From NCBI GenBank assembly GCA_025363315.1, contig JANYED010000167.1:8348-72347 (forward strand): DNA of 64,000 nt, written 5' to 3'. The notes beneath the pieces are model-generated. The model did not search any database. It was not told the origin of the DNA and saw only the letters and a program-made list of their open reading frames with translations. The DNA is from Polaromonas sp. Lineage in GTDB: Bacteria > Pseudomonadota > Gammaproteobacteria > Burkholderiales > Burkholderiaceae_C. Shown piece by piece: positions 46,528 to 52,882 of the stretch (within the stretch, counting starts at the first letter, position 1; the number at the start of each line of letters is the position of its first letter). Position numbers and translations under genes: made by a program.

Positions 46528-47811
46528 TCAGCATAACTGCTGCGAAATCACGGTTTTTTCTATCAGCCGGTCATCGCCGAGCGTGATGAGTGCAAAGAGC
46601 AGCTCATCGAGGTTGTTTGCGCGGGCGGCTTTGCGGGCCAGCAGGGGTGTGGCCTGCGGGTTGACGATGACAAAGTCAGCCTCGCAGCCCGGTTGCAGGT
46701 TGCCGACCACGCCCGCCAAGCCCATGGCCTGGGCGGCACCTGCCGTGTGTTGCCACCACAGCTGCTGCGGCTTAATCGACAGGCCGGGTTTGGTGGCCCC
46801 TTCCCGGCCCACGTAATACGCGGCCAACATGGTGTGAAACGGGCTGAACGACGTGCCGCCGCCCACGTCGCTGGCCAGGCCGTAAGAAAAACCCGCCTGG
46901 TCGGCCGCGCGATAGTCAAAATAGCCGCTGCCCAAAAAGAGGTTGCTGGTCGGGCTGACCGCGGCAGCTGTGCCCGTGCTTCGCATCAAGGCGCGGTCGT
47001 CATCGTCAATATGAATGCAGTGGGCGTACACGGCTTTGGGCCGCAGCAGACCAAATTGTTCGTACACGCTGAGGTAGCTGCGAGCCTTCGGGTACAGGCG
47101 TTTGACCCAGGCGATTTCATCCTTGTTCTCCGCCACGTGGGACTGAATCCACACGTCTGGATACTTGGCTGCCAGCACGCCCGCGCCCTGCAATTGCGCC
47201 GCGCTGCTGGTCGGTACAAAGCGTGGGGTGATCGCATAACCCAGCCGGTCAATGCCGTGCCATTTGTTGATCAGGGCTTCAGTATCGACGAGACTCTGCT
47301 TTGTTTCATCACGCAGGCCGTCGGGGGCGTTTTGGTCCATCAGTACCTTGCCAGCCACCATGCGCAAACTTTGCTTTCGCGCCTCGCCCAGCAGTGCGTC
47401 AACAGATTGTCGGTGTGATGTGGCAAAAGTGAGCGCGGTTGTCACGCCATTGCGAAGCAGTTCTGCTATGAAGAACGTAGCTGCTTGCGCACAGTATTCG
47501 GGCGCTGCAAAGCGCTTTTCTTCTGGAAAGGTGTGGTTCTTCAGCCACGGCAGCAAGCCGTCAGCGGGCAAGCCCATCACGTCTGTCTGCGGGAAGTGGA
47601 TGTGCATGTCTACAAAACCAGGGGCGATGATGCGGCCGGGCAGGTGTTCAACCGGCAAGTCGGGGTAGCTCGAACGCAAGCTTTGAAAGCTGCCAATGGC
47701 CTGGACGACCTGGCGACCTTGTGTGTTGGGGCCTGCGACGAGCAGCCCGTCTTGTTCAAAAACGGCGTCGCGGCCCTTGAAGTGCAGCAGCGAGGCGCGG
47801 TAGGCTTTCAT
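46528..47811 (-). CDS. guaD: Guanine deaminase
   Basis: PGFVDMHIHFPQ, WLKNHTFPEE, AITPRF, QSHVAEN, AHCIH, SNLFLGSG, ASDVGGGTS. Confidence 0.93.
   Translation of the reverse strand: MKAYRASLLHFKGRDAVFEQDGLLVAGPNTQGRQVVQAIGSFQSLRSSYPDLPVEHLPGRIIAPGFVDMHIHFPQTDVMGLPADGLLPWLKNHTFPEEKRFAAPEYCAQAATFFIAELLRNGVTTALTFATSHRQSVDALLGEARKQSLRMVAGKVLMDQNAPDGLRDETKQSLVDTEALINKWHGIDRLGYAITPRFVPTSSAAQLQGAGVLAAKYPDVWIQSHVAENKDEIAWVKRLYPKARSYLSVYEQFGLLRPKAVYAHCIHIDDDDRALMRSTGTAAAVSPTSNLFLGSGYFDYRAADQAGFSYGLASDVGGGTSFSPFHTMLAAYYVGREGATKPGLSIKPQQLWWQHTAGAAQAMGLAGVVGNLQPGCEADFVIVNPQATPLLARKAARANNLDELLFALITLGDDRLIEKTVISQQLC
47465..47518 (+). repeat. 54-bp motif, copy 13 (antisense inside guaD, KRFAAPEYCAQAATFFIA)
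   Basis: gctat gaagaac gtagc tgct tgcgc aca gtattcg ggcgct gcaaagcgcttt. Confidence 0.82.
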
Positions 47812-47822
47812 CGTTCAAGGCA

Positions 47823-48197
47823 TCAGTTGGTCAAAGTGCAACTGTCACCCATGCCATCGCGCCACACCCGAACTGCAGCCAGGCCGGGCAAGCTGGGGGC
47901 TAAAGCGCGCCATATGTAGGCACACAGGTTCTCTAGCGTGGCCGTGCCCAGGCCGGGCACGTCGTCCAGCATGCGGTGGTCCAGCTGGGGGCGCAGCAGC
48001 TCAATGGCTGCGCGCACGCGGCCCAGGTCGAGCACCATGCCCGTGGCGGGGTCAGGCTGGCCGCTCAAGGTGACCTCGGCGTTGTAGGTGTGGCCGTGGA
48101 TGCGGCGGCTTGCCTCGGCCTGTGTGTCGGCTCCAGTTTCACGCTTGAGCGTGTGTGCGGCATCGAAATAAAAGCGTTGGCTGATTTGGTACGTCAT
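47823..48197 (-). CDS. queD: 6-carboxy-5,6,7,8-tetrahydropterin synthase
   Basis: FDAAHTL, IHGHTY, LDHRMLD, TLENL motifs; downstream of queE. Confidence 0.88.
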   Translation of the reverse strand: MTYQISQRFYFDAAHTLKRETGADTQAEASRRIHGHTYNAEVTLSGQPDPATGMVLDLGRVRAAIELLRPQLDHRMLDDVPGLGTATLENLCAYIWRALAPSLPGLAAVRVWRDGMGDSCTLTN

Positions 48198-48225
48198 CTG
48201 AAAGCCTTCAGCAATTGCCTGTCAT

Positions 48226-48861
48226 TTAGCGAATGCCAGTCAGTTTGTGGGTTTGCAGGCTGAGTCGCCACGCCGGGCGCTGCATGCAAAGTGCAATGCA
48301 ATCGCTGAGATTAGCCGCTTTCAGCACGTTGTCCATCGGCTGCAAATAGCGATGGGTGAATTGGGCGGCTTCAAGCTCTGTCAGATGAAATGCAATTTGC
48401 GGCCACACCACTTTCAGCTCATTGCCATGCCGCTGCACCCACGGCGCACCGGCTTTAGGGCTGACGCAAATCCAGTCGATGCCTGCTGGGGCGGTGATCG
48501 TGCCGTTGGTCTCCACCGCGATTTCAAAACCGCGCGCATGCAGCGCTTCAATCAAAGCCGCATCGACTTGCAGCAATGGCTCACCACCTGTCATCACAAC
48601 GAAACGATGCGCTTTGCCGGCGACAGGCCACTGCGCGGCGATTTGGTCGGCAAGCGCATCCGCATCAGCAAACTTGCCGCCGAGCGTGCCGTCCGTCCCC
48701 ACAAAATCGGTATCGCAAAAATTGCAGATCGCGCTGGCGCGGTCTTGCTCGCGGCCAGACCACAAATTGCAGCCCGCAAAGCGGCAAAACACTGCTGGGC
48801 GACCTGCGTTAGCGCCTTCGCCTTGCAGGGTGTAAAAAATTTCTTTGACTTGATAGCTCAT
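48226..48861 (-). CDS. queE: 7-carboxy-7-deazaguanine synthase (CX14CX2C type)
   Basis: KEIFYTLQGEG, GC-NLWSGREQDRASAI-C-NF-C (CX14CX2C, as in Burkholderia QueE), TGGEP, ETNG, VSPK, SLQTHK. Confidence 0.95.
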   Translation of the reverse strand: MSYQVKEIFYTLQGEGANAGRPAVFCRFAGCNLWSGREQDRASAICNFCDTDFVGTDGTLGGKFADADALADQIAAQWPVAGKAHRFVVMTGGEPLLQVDAALIEALHARGFEIAVETNGTITAPAGIDWICVSPKAGAPWVQRHGNELKVVWPQIAFHLTELEAAQFTHRYLQPMDNVLKAANLSDCIALCMQRPAWRLSLQTHKLTGIR

Positions 48862-48893
48862 AACAAGCTCCATGCCGCAATAGGCAGAGCGGT

Positions 48894-48924
48894 GAGGTTT
48901 TTATACATGGTAGTCCTCTACATG
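48894..48924 (-). ncRNA. Candidate preQ1 class I riboswitch aptamer
   Basis: RNA CAUG-UAGAGGACUAC-CAUG-UAUAAAAA-CCUC: 4-bp P1, loop starting with U and ending in AC, A-rich linker, and 3' CCUC pairing with loop GAGG (H-type pseudoknot); 32 nt upstream of the queE ATG. Confidence 0.55.
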
Positions 48925-48986
48925 GCGCCGAGAAATTGAATTTGAGTTGCTTGTCGGGCGGCAAGCGACTCGATAAGTTTAAAGCC

Positions 48987-50027
48987 TCACGCAAATGTGG
49001 CGAAACAGGCGTCCAGCTGGTCGATGTATCGGCGCTTGGCCGATGCGTCAATGAAGCTGGCTTCAAAACTGTTGCGCGCCAAGGTGTACGCCTGCTGCGC
49101 TTGCAAGCCTGTGGCCACAAACGTTTGTGTGAAGTTGTCATTCATGTAGCCGCCAAAGTAAGCCGGGTCGTCTGAATTGACAGTCACCGCCAAGCCGGTA
49201 TCCAGCAAATGCTTGATGTTATGGCTGGCCAGATCAGGAAACACGCAGAGCTTGAGGTTGGACAGTGGGCACACCGTCAGTGCAATGCGATCTGTCGCCA
49301 AACGCTGCAGCAGCGCGGCGTCTTTGCTGGACTGCACGCCATGGTCAATGCGCTCGACTTTGAGTACATCCAGCGCCGTCCACACATAAGCTGGCGGGCC
49401 TTCTTCACCAGCATGGGCAACGAGGTGAAAGCCCAGCTCCCGGCAACGCGCAAACACACGTGCAAACTTTTCGGGCGGATTGCCGACTTCGCCCGAATCA
49501 AGCCCAATACCGATGATTTTGTCCCTGTACGGCAGCGCTTGCTCCAGCGTTTCAAACGCTTCTTGCTCGCTGAGATGCCGCAAAAAGCACATGATGAGCG
49601 AGCCGTTCACGCCCAGCTCGGCTTGCGCATCCACACACGCACGATGTAGCCCGTTGATGACCACATCCATGCTCACGCCGCGCGCGGTGTGCGTTTGCGG
49701 GTCAAAAAACAGCTCGGCATGAATCACGTTGTCTGCAGCAGCCCTGACAAAGTAAGCGCTCGCCATGTCGTAAAAGTCCTGCTCTTTCAGCAGCACACTG
49801 GCCCCGGCATAATAAATGTCAAGAAAGCTTTGGAGATTGGTGAAGGCGTAGGCTTGACGAAGCTCTGCAACGCTGCTGTAGGGAATGGTGATGTTGTTGC
49901 GCTGGGCCAGTGCGAAGATCAGCTCCGGCTCCAGGGAGCCTTCAATGTGAATATGCAACTCCGCCTTGGGCATGGTCCTCAGCAAGTCAGGCAAGCGGTT
50001 TGCGGCAACGGGTTTGACGTGATTCAT
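48987..50027 (-). CDS. add: Adenosine/adenine deaminase
   Basis: Probable start MNHVKP; PKAELHIHIEGSLEP, AHAGEE, RIDHG, CPLSN, NSDDP. Confidence 0.92.
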   Translation of the reverse strand: MNHVKPVAANRLPDLLRTMPKAELHIHIEGSLEPELIFALAQRNNITIPYSSVAELRQAYAFTNLQSFLDIYYAGASVLLKEQDFYDMASAYFVRAAADNVIHAELFFDPQTHTARGVSMDVVINGLHRACVDAQAELGVNGSLIMCFLRHLSEQEAFETLEQALPYRDKIIGIGLDSGEVGNPPEKFARVFARCRELGFHLVAHAGEEGPPAYVWTALDVLKVERIDHGVQSSKDAALLQRLATDRIALTVCPLSNLKLCVFPDLASHNIKHLLDTGLAVTVNSDDPAYFGGYMNDNFTQTFVATGLQAQQAYTLARNSFEASFIDASAKRRYIDQLDACFATFA

Positions 50028-51463: not shown

Positions 51464-52882
51464 TTGATGCCAGCCACACCTTCACAAGCCAACACGCTGC
51501 TGATCCATCGCGCTGACGCGCTAGCCACCCTGCACGATACAGGCAGCCAGTACAAGGATGCCAGTCTGCTGATTGAGGGCAACGCGATTGCGTGGGTTGG
51601 CCGGGCAGCCGACTTGCCAGCGGGCGCGTTGGCATCGGCTGGCGACGTCATTGATGCCAGAGGCTGTGTGGTGGTGCCAGGGCTGATCAACACGCACCAC
51701 CACATGTTTCAGTCACTCACCCGGGCAGTGCCTGCGGCGCAAAATGCGGAGCTTTTTGGCTGGCTGAAGGCGTTGTATCCGATATGGGCCAGGCTGACCC
51801 CTGAGATGGTGAACGTGTCAACCCAAATCGCCATGGCCGAGCTGCTGCTGTCGGGCTGCACAACGTCGTCAGATCATTTGTACATCTACCCGAACGGCGT
51901 GCGGCTGGACGACAGCATTGAGGCCGCCGCGCGTATTGGCATGCGCTTTCATGCCACGCGCGGGGCGATGAGCGTCGGCGAAAGCGCGGGTGGCCTTCCG
52001 CCAGACAACCTGGTTGAAAACGAGGCGGCCATCCTCACTGATACTCAGCGGTTGATTGAACGTTATGACGACAAAGGTCGCTACGCGATGCTGCGGGTTG
52101 CCGCTGCGCCATGCTCACCATTTAGCGTCAGCACCAGTTTGATGCGCGAGTCTGCCGTGCTGGCAAGATCGTTAGGCGCGCGCATGCATACGCATCTGGC
52201 TGAAAACGACCACGACGTGGCCTACAGCCTTGAAAAGTTTGGCATGACACCGGCACAATACGCCGAGTCACTGGGCTGGCTGGGCAGCGATGTGTGGCAT
52301 GCCCACTGCGTCAAGCTGGACGCGCATGGCATAGGGCGCTTTGCCGCCACCGGCACAGGCGTCGCGCATTGCCCGTGCAGCAACATGCGCCTGGCGTCTG
52401 GCATTGCCCCTGTCCGCCGCATGCTGGATGCGGGTGTTGCGGTGGGCCTGGGTGTTGACGGCAGCGCCAGCAACGACGCTGCGCATTTGCTGAACGAAGC
52501 ACGGCAGGCCATGCTGCTGGCGCGGGTCGGCCGCTCGCTGGAGCCGTTTGGCTGCGATGCAGGCCCGCGCGAAATGGGTGCGATGGACGCGCTACACATG
52601 GCAACCCGTGGCGGTGCAAAAGTGCTGGGCCGCAGTGATATTGGCATGCTCGCACCGGGAATGGCCGCGGACGTGGCGATTTACGACACCCGCACGCTGG
52701 GCTTTGCCGGTGGCGCGGTTCATGACCCGATAGGCGCTTTGATGTTTTGCGTCAGCGCCAATGCGGCTTACACCATCGTTAATGGCAAAGTCGTGGTGCG
52801 CAATGGGCAACTGACGACGGTGGATTTGGGGCCGTTGATAGAGCGGCACAACCAGTTGGCCGTGCAACTTGTCAACACGTAA
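51464..52882 (+). CDS. 8-oxoguanine deaminase-like amidohydrolase
   Basis: PGLINTHHHMFQSLTRA, SSDHLY, APCSPF, HTHLAE, HCPCSNMRLASG, GVDGSASND. Confidence 0.88.
   Translation: MMPATPSQANTLLIHRADALATLHDTGSQYKDASLLIEGNAIAWVGRAADLPAGALASAGDVIDARGCVVVPGLINTHHHMFQSLTRAVPAAQNAELFGWLKALYPIWARLTPEMVNVSTQIAMAELLLSGCTTSSDHLYIYPNGVRLDDSIEAAARIGMRFHATRGAMSVGESAGGLPPDNLVENEAAILTDTQRLIERYDDKGRYAMLRVAAAPCSPFSVSTSLMRESAVLARSLGARMHTHLAENDHDVAYSLEKFGMTPAQYAESLGWLGSDVWHAHCVKLDAHGIGRFAATGTGVAHCPCSNMRLASGIAPVRRMLDAGVAVGLGVDGSASNDAAHLLNEARQAMLLARVGRSLEPFGCDAGPREMGAMDALHMATRGGAKVLGRSDIGMLAPGMAADVAIYDTRTLGFAGGAVHDPIGALMFCVSANAAYTIVNGKVVVRNGQLTTVDLGPLIERHNQLAVQLVNT

Follow-up and report, generated by a model that had tools for sequence, protein, structure and literature searches.

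What kind of regulatory signal is carried by the 125-nucleotide (nt) spacer between add and queE in a Polaromonas genome? The spacer lies within a 64,000-nt stretch of Polaromonas sp. DNA (contig JANYED010000167.1 of assembly GCA_025363315.1), referred to here as the window, and all coordinates given below are positions within it. On the minus strand of the window, the adenosine deaminase gene add (48987..50027) is followed by queE (48226..48861), encoding the radical SAM enzyme 7-carboxy-7-deazaguanine synthase. The original prediction, made from the letters of the DNA alone, proposed that a preQ1-I riboswitch of atypical sequence sits in this leader and controls queE. Our analysis showed that the leader does carry a conserved cis element with the preQ1-I layout; however, about 190 of its 235 distinct copies stand on another gene, here called bmp2. 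Comparison of genomes indicates that the element is a real and widely conserved RNA fold which is new to Rfam 15. Our leading interpretation, held with slightly more confidence than doubt, is that the leader constitutes a cis-acting translational OFF riboswitch related to preQ1-I, with a guanine-like base as its ligand.

The core of the element is a 31-nt sequence on the minus strand (48924-48894), CAUG-UA-GAGG-ACUAC-CAUG-UAUAAAAA-CCUC, and its predicted layout as an H-type pseudoknot was found as described, with the G-U at the junction, the AC before the second P1 strand, the A-rich third loop and the facing GAGG and CCUC. Read from the 5′ end, it comprises the 5′ strand of helix P1 (CAUG, 48921..48924), loop L1 (UA, 48919..48920), the 5′ strand of helix P2 (GAGG, 48915..48918), loop L2 (ACUAC, 48910..48914), the P1 3′ strand (CAUG, 48906..48909), loop L3 (UAUAAAAA, 48898..48905) and the P2 3′ strand (CCUC, 48894..48897). 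The loops thus measure 2, 5 and 8 nt in the window, and 2, 5 to 6 and 7 to 8 nt across the family. In 99 aligned matches, P1 (CAUG/CAUG) and P2 (GAGG/CCUC) occur without any change, and variation is confined to the second base of L1 (A, C or G after an invariant U), the middle of L2, the first three bases of L3, which precede an invariant run of A residues, and a one-base change in the length of L2 or L3. L2 reads ACUAC, ACCAC, AACAC, ACAAC or ACUAAC and ends in an invariant AC, the C of which (C48910) is the candidate ligand-pairing base. P1 and P2 can be drawn in every copy with fitting loop lengths; since both helices are invariant, they cannot covary, and their pairing is a proposal. Two 4-base-pair (bp) helices would mean nothing by themselves, and it is their conservation that marks the core as non-random. 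Moreover, the predicted folding of the entire leader is no better than that of shuffles (z = -0.6), and our claims must therefore rest on comparison between genomes.

The invariant strands coincide with a site of translation initiation. GAGG lies 6 nt before the AUG in the P1 3′ strand (48908-48906), as in a textbook ribosome-binding site, and is the Shine-Dalgarno (SD) sequence of an open reading frame (ORF) embedded in the core, while the P1 5′ strand is complementary to the strand that bears the start codon. L3 then supplies codons 2 to 4, and the P2 3′ strand falls inside codons 4 and 5 (AAC CUC). Translation from this AUG in 123 loci yielded in most of them bmp2, an ORF of 349 to 393 amino acids with a lipoprotein or twin-arginine signal peptide beginning M-x-K/Q-N-L; in the window, the same AUG starts a short upstream ORF (uORF). 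P1 and P2 would then be invariant because function fixes the SD and the start codon and, through them, the partner strands CAUG and CCUC. The original prediction was correct in giving P1 only 4 bp, but it called CCUC an anti-SD-like strand and saw neither that the proposed partner of this strand, GAGG, is a real SD nor that the AUG in P1 is a start codon. The 5′ CAUG contains an AUG as well, in frame with the true start codon (48924-48906, minus strand). In the window and in most copies this AUG is directly followed by UAG, forming a start-stop, and in copies with UC in L1 the frame (AUG-UCG-AGG-...) is open through into the ORF.

The first codons of this ORF are constrained beyond the protein that they encode. 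Codons 3 to 5 consistently read AAA (or CAA)-AAC-CUC, while elsewhere in these genes AAA accounts for 22% of the lysine codons and CUC for 27% of the leucine codons. Leucine codon 5 is CUC in 175 of 176 copies, which were picked by a pattern containing those bases; the model-based set of 99 shows the same. We read this constraint as acting at the level of RNA. The invariable asparagine codon AAC at position 4, the tyrosine or histidine codon at position 2 of many copies and the coupling of the uORF to queE (see below) would also suit a leader peptide that senses queuosine-modified tRNA, with the speed of the ribosome at Tyr UAU and Asn AAC in MYKN... setting queE translation. We consider this explanation very improbable and discarded it, since position 2 is occupied by 17 different codons and the ORF encodes in most genomes a secreted protein of 360 amino acids, at the start of which stalling would follow no queuosine logic. 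In addition, conservation extends 5′ of the AUG and includes covariation at the RNA level, and in a subtype found on queE the frame is changed (MFKTS...) and the asparagine codon is lost.

To follow the element through related bacteria, a covariance model was built from a 46-nt region around the core. It matched 188 of 401 genomes of the family, in 105 of 201 genera, with E values down to 1e-16 and almost always once per genome; there was one match in the genome that contains the window, and beyond the family, matches were obtained in one further family of the order only. Homologues of QueE were found in 59 of 121 family genomes and in 44 of 61 same-genus genomes, and in about 35 of these 44, as well as in four other genera, the core is nearly letter-identical upstream of queE or its operon. 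The conservation in orthologous leaders on which the original prediction depended was thus confirmed. An exact-pattern scan was run against 185,579 species genomes, and among the matches listed all but one belong to Burkholderiales of the Comamonadaceae/Sphaerotilaceae type, including Variovorax, Polaromonas, Acidovorax, Comamonas, Hydrogenophaga, Limnohabitans, Rhodoferax, Ramlibacter, Methylibium and Ideonella. The sole exception among them is contig JADJDQ010000002.1 (L240), labelled Candidatus Intricatilinea gracilis, with a complete element, a matching pair of S1 loop and flank (see below) and a bmp2 gene; misbinning of this contig or a transfer of the region could be the reason. Full-text literature searches, the coverage of which excluded most subscription journals, found no description of the motif.

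The genes that follow the element show what it mainly serves. Besides the copies that head bmp2, about 40 of the 235 head a short ORF followed by queE-queD(-guaD). Conversely, a bmp2 orthologue of at least 55% identity was present in 57 sampled genomes, and in 51 of these the motif lies exactly on the bmp2 start. Where the sequence is long enough, guaD comes after bmp2, often only a few bases away, and add, the usual upstream gene, precedes the element in about 90 copies. By gene content, the element therefore appears to belong mainly to bmp2 in an add/guaD purine-salvage context and is not primarily a queE element. It remains constant while the sequence downstream differs by lineage, with ORFs ranging from 15 to 393 codons. 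A subtype in which L3 is one nt shorter occurs on the queE leaders of four other genera. One genome (G347) contains two copies (L156 and L157), one of the bmp2 type (L3 UACAAAAA) and one of the queE type (L3 UUCAAAA), the latter with a short uORF ending in AUGA on queE. A connection between the motif and missing de novo queuosine synthesis was considered and rejected, as QueC occurs in 102 of 121 genomes, whether or not they carry the motif.

The conserved region extends well upstream of the core. The full element runs from about 48981 to 48894, and the predicted 5′ untranslated region (UTR) measures ~90 nt; the original prediction had outlined 47823-48924, an interval which includes the core but spans queD and queE and ends at the 5′ edge of the core. 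At the upstream end lies a −10-like hexamer, TAAACT (48976..48981, minus strand), for which the consensus is TAAAAT, TAGAAT or TACAAT, with GACAAT and others also occurring and with A2 and T6 invariant. In 201 of 230 copies, a [TGC]ANAAT hexamer precedes the core by 54 to 66 nt, in comparison with 0 to 6% (0 to 14 of 230) in control windows, and its placement implies a putative transcription start at the foot of the adjacent hairpin, S1. A simple promoter and terminator scan of the window returned no terminator and no full −35/−10 match. S1 (GAGU-CGCUUG/CAAGC-AACUC; 48944..48971, minus strand; predicted fold of −11.1 kcal/mol) is GC-rich, begins 8 to 12 nt after the hexamer across the copies and carries an 8-nt loop, CCGCCCGA (48961-48954). 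This loop contains the 5′ strand of a further helix, S2 (48956..48960), whose 3′ strand, CGGCGC (48925..48930), abuts P1. Between S1 and S2 runs the pyrimidine/U-rich linker that would form loop 3 of the first pseudoknot (48931..48943; AAAUUCAAUUUCU in the window); in all copies, a linker of 9 to 17 nt, mostly U-rich, occupies the same place.

Both S1 and S2 covary. The flank next to P1 and the S1 loop change together, giving pairs such as CGGGGC/GCCCCG, CGGAGC/GCUCCG, GGAAGC/GCUUCC, GGUGGC/GCCACC and UGUGGC/GCCACA as well as CAGGGC/GCCCUG, CGGGAC/GUCCCG, CAGAAC/GUUCUG and CCGAGC/GCUCGG. In an alignment-free comparison, an exact complement of the flank 6-mer was present 30 to 37 nt upstream in 48% of 231 sequences versus 5% upon cross-species pairing, and 20 different flank 6-mers each had their own upstream complement. 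When the hairpin was predicted independently, 64% of the sequences had a run of at least 5 Watson-Crick pairs between the S1 loop and the flank versus 8% in the cross-species control. A structure-anchored alignment was then made with 182 sequences, fitted to the structure and with 48 sequences skipped. In it, S1 was 96% paired with 60 to 98 double changes at each of its 7 pairs (48% paired in shuffles), and S2 reached 99.6% pairing and showed double changes at 4 of its 5 pairs (86% paired in shuffles). These alignment-free permutation tests and the structure-anchored alignment were used instead of MAFFT with RNAalifold, which misaligned S1 and S2 on the full element and returned P2 only. Covariation, which had been suggested as a check on the original prediction, was therefore found in S1 and S2 but not in the invariant P1 and P2. 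An outer helix that would close the aptamer by pairing the 5′ flank with sequence 3′ of CCUC was rejected, as it can be formed in few sequences only and the 5′ flank pairs with the S1 loop instead. Since the 3′ strand of S2 runs without interruption into the 5′ strand of P1, S2 can be modelled as stacking on P1, which can account for the stability of a P1 of 4 bp. Two further features of the linker should be mentioned. Together with S1 it resembles, at most loci (e.g., L231, L246 and L293), an intrinsic terminator placed ~10 nt after the −10 box and could also serve as the add terminator where add lies upstream. Its U-run could, in addition, pair with the A-run of L3.

How, then, does the element come to stand in front of queE in the window? 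The uORF that starts in P1 encodes MYKNLTALPIAAWSLL in 16 codons (48858..48908, minus strand), and its UGA (48860-48858) overlaps the queE AUG (48861-48859) as AUGA. Genomes of the same genus form a series from a full bmp2 with AUGA onto queE (L073), through internally deleted ORFs of 105 codons (L056) and 91 codons (L062) without queE overlap, to ORFs of 15 to 50 codons with unrelated peptide tails. Sequence comparison thus identifies the uORF of Polaromonas-like genomes as the remnant of a decayed bmp2. In every ORF of fewer than 60 codons, the UGA overlaps the queE start (AUGA, GUGA or UUGA), and all distances from the motif to queE are multiples of three. As the reading phase is kept and the peptide is not, this is a signature of translational coupling, and it indicates that queE translation is likely coupled to the uORF through the AUGA overlap.

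The original prediction had assigned the control of queE to two alternative hairpins, one sequestering the queE SD and the other releasing it. The components are present: the hairpin GCUCUGCC...GGCAUGGAGC (48867..48890, minus strand), which pairs the queE SD GGAG (48871-48868), is the RNAfold minimum-energy structure of the leader, and CCGC (48892-48889) and GCGG (48878-48875) are in place. Hairpins pairing the SD similarly occur in many, though not all, of the short-uORF relatives. The CCGC/GCGG anti-sequestor is not conserved in the nearest relatives and lies inside the translated uORF, and it was rejected. Control of queE is better explained by translational coupling through AUGA than by a hairpin switch, and the hairpin over the queE SD is best read as a coupling device that would be opened by the translating ribosome. 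The arrangement has its counterpart in translationally coupled leader ORFs with an AUGA stop-start, sharing with them the uORF stop over the queE start, the SD held in a hairpin inside the uORF and a conserved phase with a peptide that is not conserved. Unlike the usual leader ORFs of this kind, the uORF is the decayed 5′ end of a structural gene and has its initiation site inside a conserved pseudoknot.

The element was compared with preQ1-I riboswitches and with the other families of Rfam 15. Searches with 3.5 kilobases, 146 nt and 48 nt of sequence matched no Rfam 15 family at E ≤ 10, including the preQ1 model RF00522, as the original prediction had anticipated in saying that standard models may miss the element. 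The leader did not reach the RF00522 gathering threshold (39 bits), and this model gave only four unrelated noise matches of 13 to 17 bits in the genome that contains the window. The two RNAs nevertheless have much in common: a layout that can be drawn as a minimal H-type pseudoknot with L1 (2), L2 (5) and L3 (8) in the same order and of the same lengths, a U that opens L1, an AC that closes L2, a G-C that closes P1 beside the pocket, and an A-run in L3 followed by the C that starts P2, with the tail UAUAAAAAC equal to the RF00522 consensus uAUAAAAAAC. The pocket positions of preQ1-I, namely the initial U of L1, the final C of L2, the adenines of L3 and the G-C topping P1, are all present and invariant in the 99 matches; the specificity C and the L3 adenines of preQ1-I are described in PMC10622847. 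Translational control through a hidden ribosome-binding site, as proposed here, and the presence of some copies on queuosine genes would be further points of agreement.

There are also differences. P1 is an invariant helix of 4 bp; the SD is the P2 5′ strand in a hairpin loop and not the 3′ tail; and the P2 3′ strand, which is or overlaps the SD or antiterminator in RF00522, is here the CCUC of codons 4 and 5. The start codon is the P1 3′ strand, so that the 3′ half of the aptamer is coding, and an extra 5′ hairpin is joined by a covarying second pseudoknot helix that would stack on P1. The main regulated gene encodes a putative purine-base-binding protein beside a guanine deaminase. The hosts are Comamonadaceae-type Burkholderiales, whereas type III preQ1-I riboswitches are almost exclusively gamma-proteobacterial and control yhhQ (PMC10622847). 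In view of these data, we find it unlikely that the leader is a plain preQ1-I riboswitch which responds to preQ1 alone and acts on queE through the SD-sequestering and anti-sequestering hairpins. Such a switch would agree with the layout of the core, with the presence of queE-queD in the window and behind about 40 of the 235 copies, and with the existence of the queE SD hairpin. It would not account for the failure of RF00522 at its cut-off, the short P1, the SD on the P2 5′ strand, the additional S1/S2 domain or the predominance of bmp2 over queuosine genes; furthermore, its CCGC/GCGG alternative is not conserved, and both of its hairpins lie in the translated uORF.

We propose instead that the 5′ UTR folds as two consecutive H-type pseudoknots. 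The S1 loop would pair with the 6 to 7 nt located 5′ of the core to form S2, which would continue unbroken into P1, and P1 would stack on P2. P2 would house the SD and P1 the start codon, with codons 2 to 5 provided by L3 and the P2 3′ strand. A guanine-like base would bind at the P1/P2 junction and pair with the invariant final C of L2, as in preQ1-I; the knot would thereby be locked, and the SD and the AUG would become inaccessible to the ribosome. Ancestrally, the ORF under this control is bmp2, which encodes a periplasmic purine-base-binding protein. In Polaromonas-like leaders, ribosomes translating the uORF would open the hairpin over the queE SD and reinitiate at the overlapping AUGA, by which queE-queD(-guaD) would inherit the control exerted by the bmp2 element. 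Of this model, the conservation, the covariation of S1 and S2, the nature of the AUG as a start codon, the series of decaying genes and the AUGA overlap are observed, and the pairing of P1 and P2, the binding of a ligand, its identity and the OFF direction are inferred. In support of this model, the U of L1, the A..AC of L2, the AAAA of L3 and the partner strands CAUG and CCUC are invariant in addition to the SD and AUG; since the L1 U, the L2 A..AC, the L3 A-run and the fixed loop lengths are unexplained by ribosome binding, a ligand-stabilised knot is the most economical explanation. The combination of a conserved putative aptamer with varying downstream sequence, together with the covarying S1 and S2, is also what is generally found in riboswitches.

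Several observations weigh against a ligand-sensing switch. Covariation in P1 and P2 is nil, and the case for their pairing consists of complementarity and analogy; no Rfam family matches the leader, as described above; and in the window itself, S2 has only about 4 bp (CGCC with GGCG) and the linker lacks U-richness. In addition, AGAGGA, which resembles a CsrA site and would be compatible with a protein repressor, is exposed in the hairpin loop. The gene logic is awkward for every single ligand, since preQ1 suits queE and queD but not the add-bmp2-guaD context of most copies, while guanine suits the repression of an uptake protein but not that of a guanine deaminase or of queE.

Some of these points would be accommodated by a structured ribosome-binding site that has no small-molecule ligand and serves as an operator for a CsrA-type GGA-binding protein or a small RNA, or as a fixed or temperature-sensitive fold that limits bmp2 initiation. 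We regard this as a possible but doubtful alternative. It would be in keeping with helices P1 and P2 that never covary, with the A-GAGGA of the P1 loop lying over the SD, with the lack of a matching Rfam aptamer model and with the A-rich codons that follow the AUG, as A-rich codons in this position favour initiation in general. On the other hand, one target per genome is unlike a global regulator, the invariant unpaired L1 U and L2 AC and the strict loop lengths are features typically seen in compact ligand pockets, and both the layout and the contact positions coincide with those of preQ1-I. Moreover, in genomes without the motif described here (motif 1), a different mini-pseudoknot sequence is found at the same place on bmp2. 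These bmp2 orthologues open with another stretch conserved at the nucleotide level, AUGAAGAGCGU(C/U)ACUUC(U/A)AAAAUACGC (MKSVTSKIR), as seen at the bmp2 starts L306, L307, L308, L310 and L311 (in genomes G045, G103, G086, G102 and G114, respectively) and also at L314-L324. This motif 2 (AUGAAGAGCGUCACUUCUAAAAUACGC) can be drawn as a tiny H-type pseudoknot with P1 GAAG/CUUC, P2 GCG/CGC, an A-rich L3 and an L2 with a terminal AC. It was detected in 11 of 401 family genomes, which represent 6 genera. No genome contains both motifs, and one genus includes one genome with motif 1 and one with motif 2; a comparison of motif 2 with Rfam at relaxed thresholds found nothing.

If the leader is a riboswitch as we favour, which guanine-like base does it sense? 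The protein encoded by bmp2 offers one line of evidence. It is a Bmp/PnrA-like substrate-binding protein (PF02608, E = 5e-53) with strong matches among solved structures to 3S99 (E = 6e-110), which has a purine in its pocket, and to AtzT (6PI5; E = 2e-102), which copurifies with guanine and binds it with a dissociation constant of 110 nM. Of the seven pocket residues of AtzT, bmp2 retains five, while Asn218 is replaced by His and Asn220 by Gly, and the exact base bound is therefore not fixed by this comparison. On the strength of homology, we assign bmp2 as a purine-base-binding protein and a close homologue of AtzT. Guanine or a related purine would thus agree with this nearest characterised relative and with the location of most copies in add-bmp2-guaD clusters. 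A 7-deazaguanine (preQ1 or preQ0) would agree with the likeness to preQ1-I, with the queE-leader subtype in four genera and with the occurrence of both types in one genome. Within the riboswitch interpretation, we lean somewhat towards a 7-deazaguanine over guanine or another purine; in that case, bmp2 would be a salvage binding protein for such bases.

Other regulatory RNAs help to place the element. Riboswitches of the preQ1-II, SAM-II and NAD+-II classes build the SD, and sometimes the start codon, into a ligand-stabilised pseudoknot. The element resembles them in having the SD and the start codon inside a pseudoknot, but their sequences, sizes and pockets are unrelated to it, and none has the CAUG/GAGG/CCUC core. 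With purine riboswitches, such as the translational add riboswitch of Vibrio vulnificus, it would share the control of purine salvage or transport and a pocket pyrimidine that pairs with the purine; however, guanine and adenine riboswitches are three-way junctions with no resemblance to its fold, and Guanine-II is a three-way junction as well (PMC12445698). We give about even weight to the broader proposal that the element constitutes a riboswitch class or subclass not described so far: a double pseudoknot in which the SD, the start codon and the first five codons of the controlled gene make up a preQ1-I-like pocket. Its ligand would be a guanine-like base, the specificity possibly having moved from preQ1 towards guanine or preQ0, and the switch would govern a purine-base uptake protein across Comamonadaceae-type bacteria.

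In the window, the order of transcription on the minus strand is bmp1, encoding a BMP-family binding protein (about 51258-50089), then add, the 125-nt spacer, queE, queD (47823..48197; 6-carboxytetrahydropterin synthase of the PTPS family) and guaD (46528..47811; a guanine deaminase-like amidohydrolase and the usual neighbour of bmp2 in other genera). Between the queD stop (47823) and the guaD start (47811) there are 11 nt, leaving no space for a separate promoter, and guaD is therefore probably cotranscribed with queD. In other genera, guaD likewise abuts or overlaps bmp2. Divergently from bmp1, a large ORF of 472 amino acids on the plus strand (51464-52882) encodes an amidohydrolase, which we take, judging by its sequence and without a family search, to be of the 8-oxoguanine/isoxanthopterin deaminase type; if this is true, the purine-catabolism character of the neighbourhood widens further. 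Elsewhere in the same genome (contig C194:3833-4858) there is a third BMP-family gene, 54% identical to bmp2, which starts with MFLKNLNQ (AUGUUUUUAAAAAACUUG) and has the A-run in the absence of the CAUG/GAGG/CCUC core.

If the element binds a ligand, it would represent a fourth architectural form of the smallest known riboswitch family and would show how a second, stacked pseudoknot can support a P1 of 4 bp. It would further be a clear example of an aptamer overlapping a coding sequence, with protein and RNA constraints acting on the same codons. As the 3′ half of the core is coding, a riboswitch search that examines intergenic sequence only would split such an element in two and miss it, which points to a blind spot of this approach. 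For the bacteria themselves, bmp2 would be a transporter component for guanine or 7-deazaguanine bases in many environmental genera, including Variovorax, Acidovorax, Polaromonas, Hydrogenophaga and Limnohabitans, and the Polaromonas series would illustrate how a regulated gene decays into a short coupling ORF and passes its riboswitch on to the next genes.

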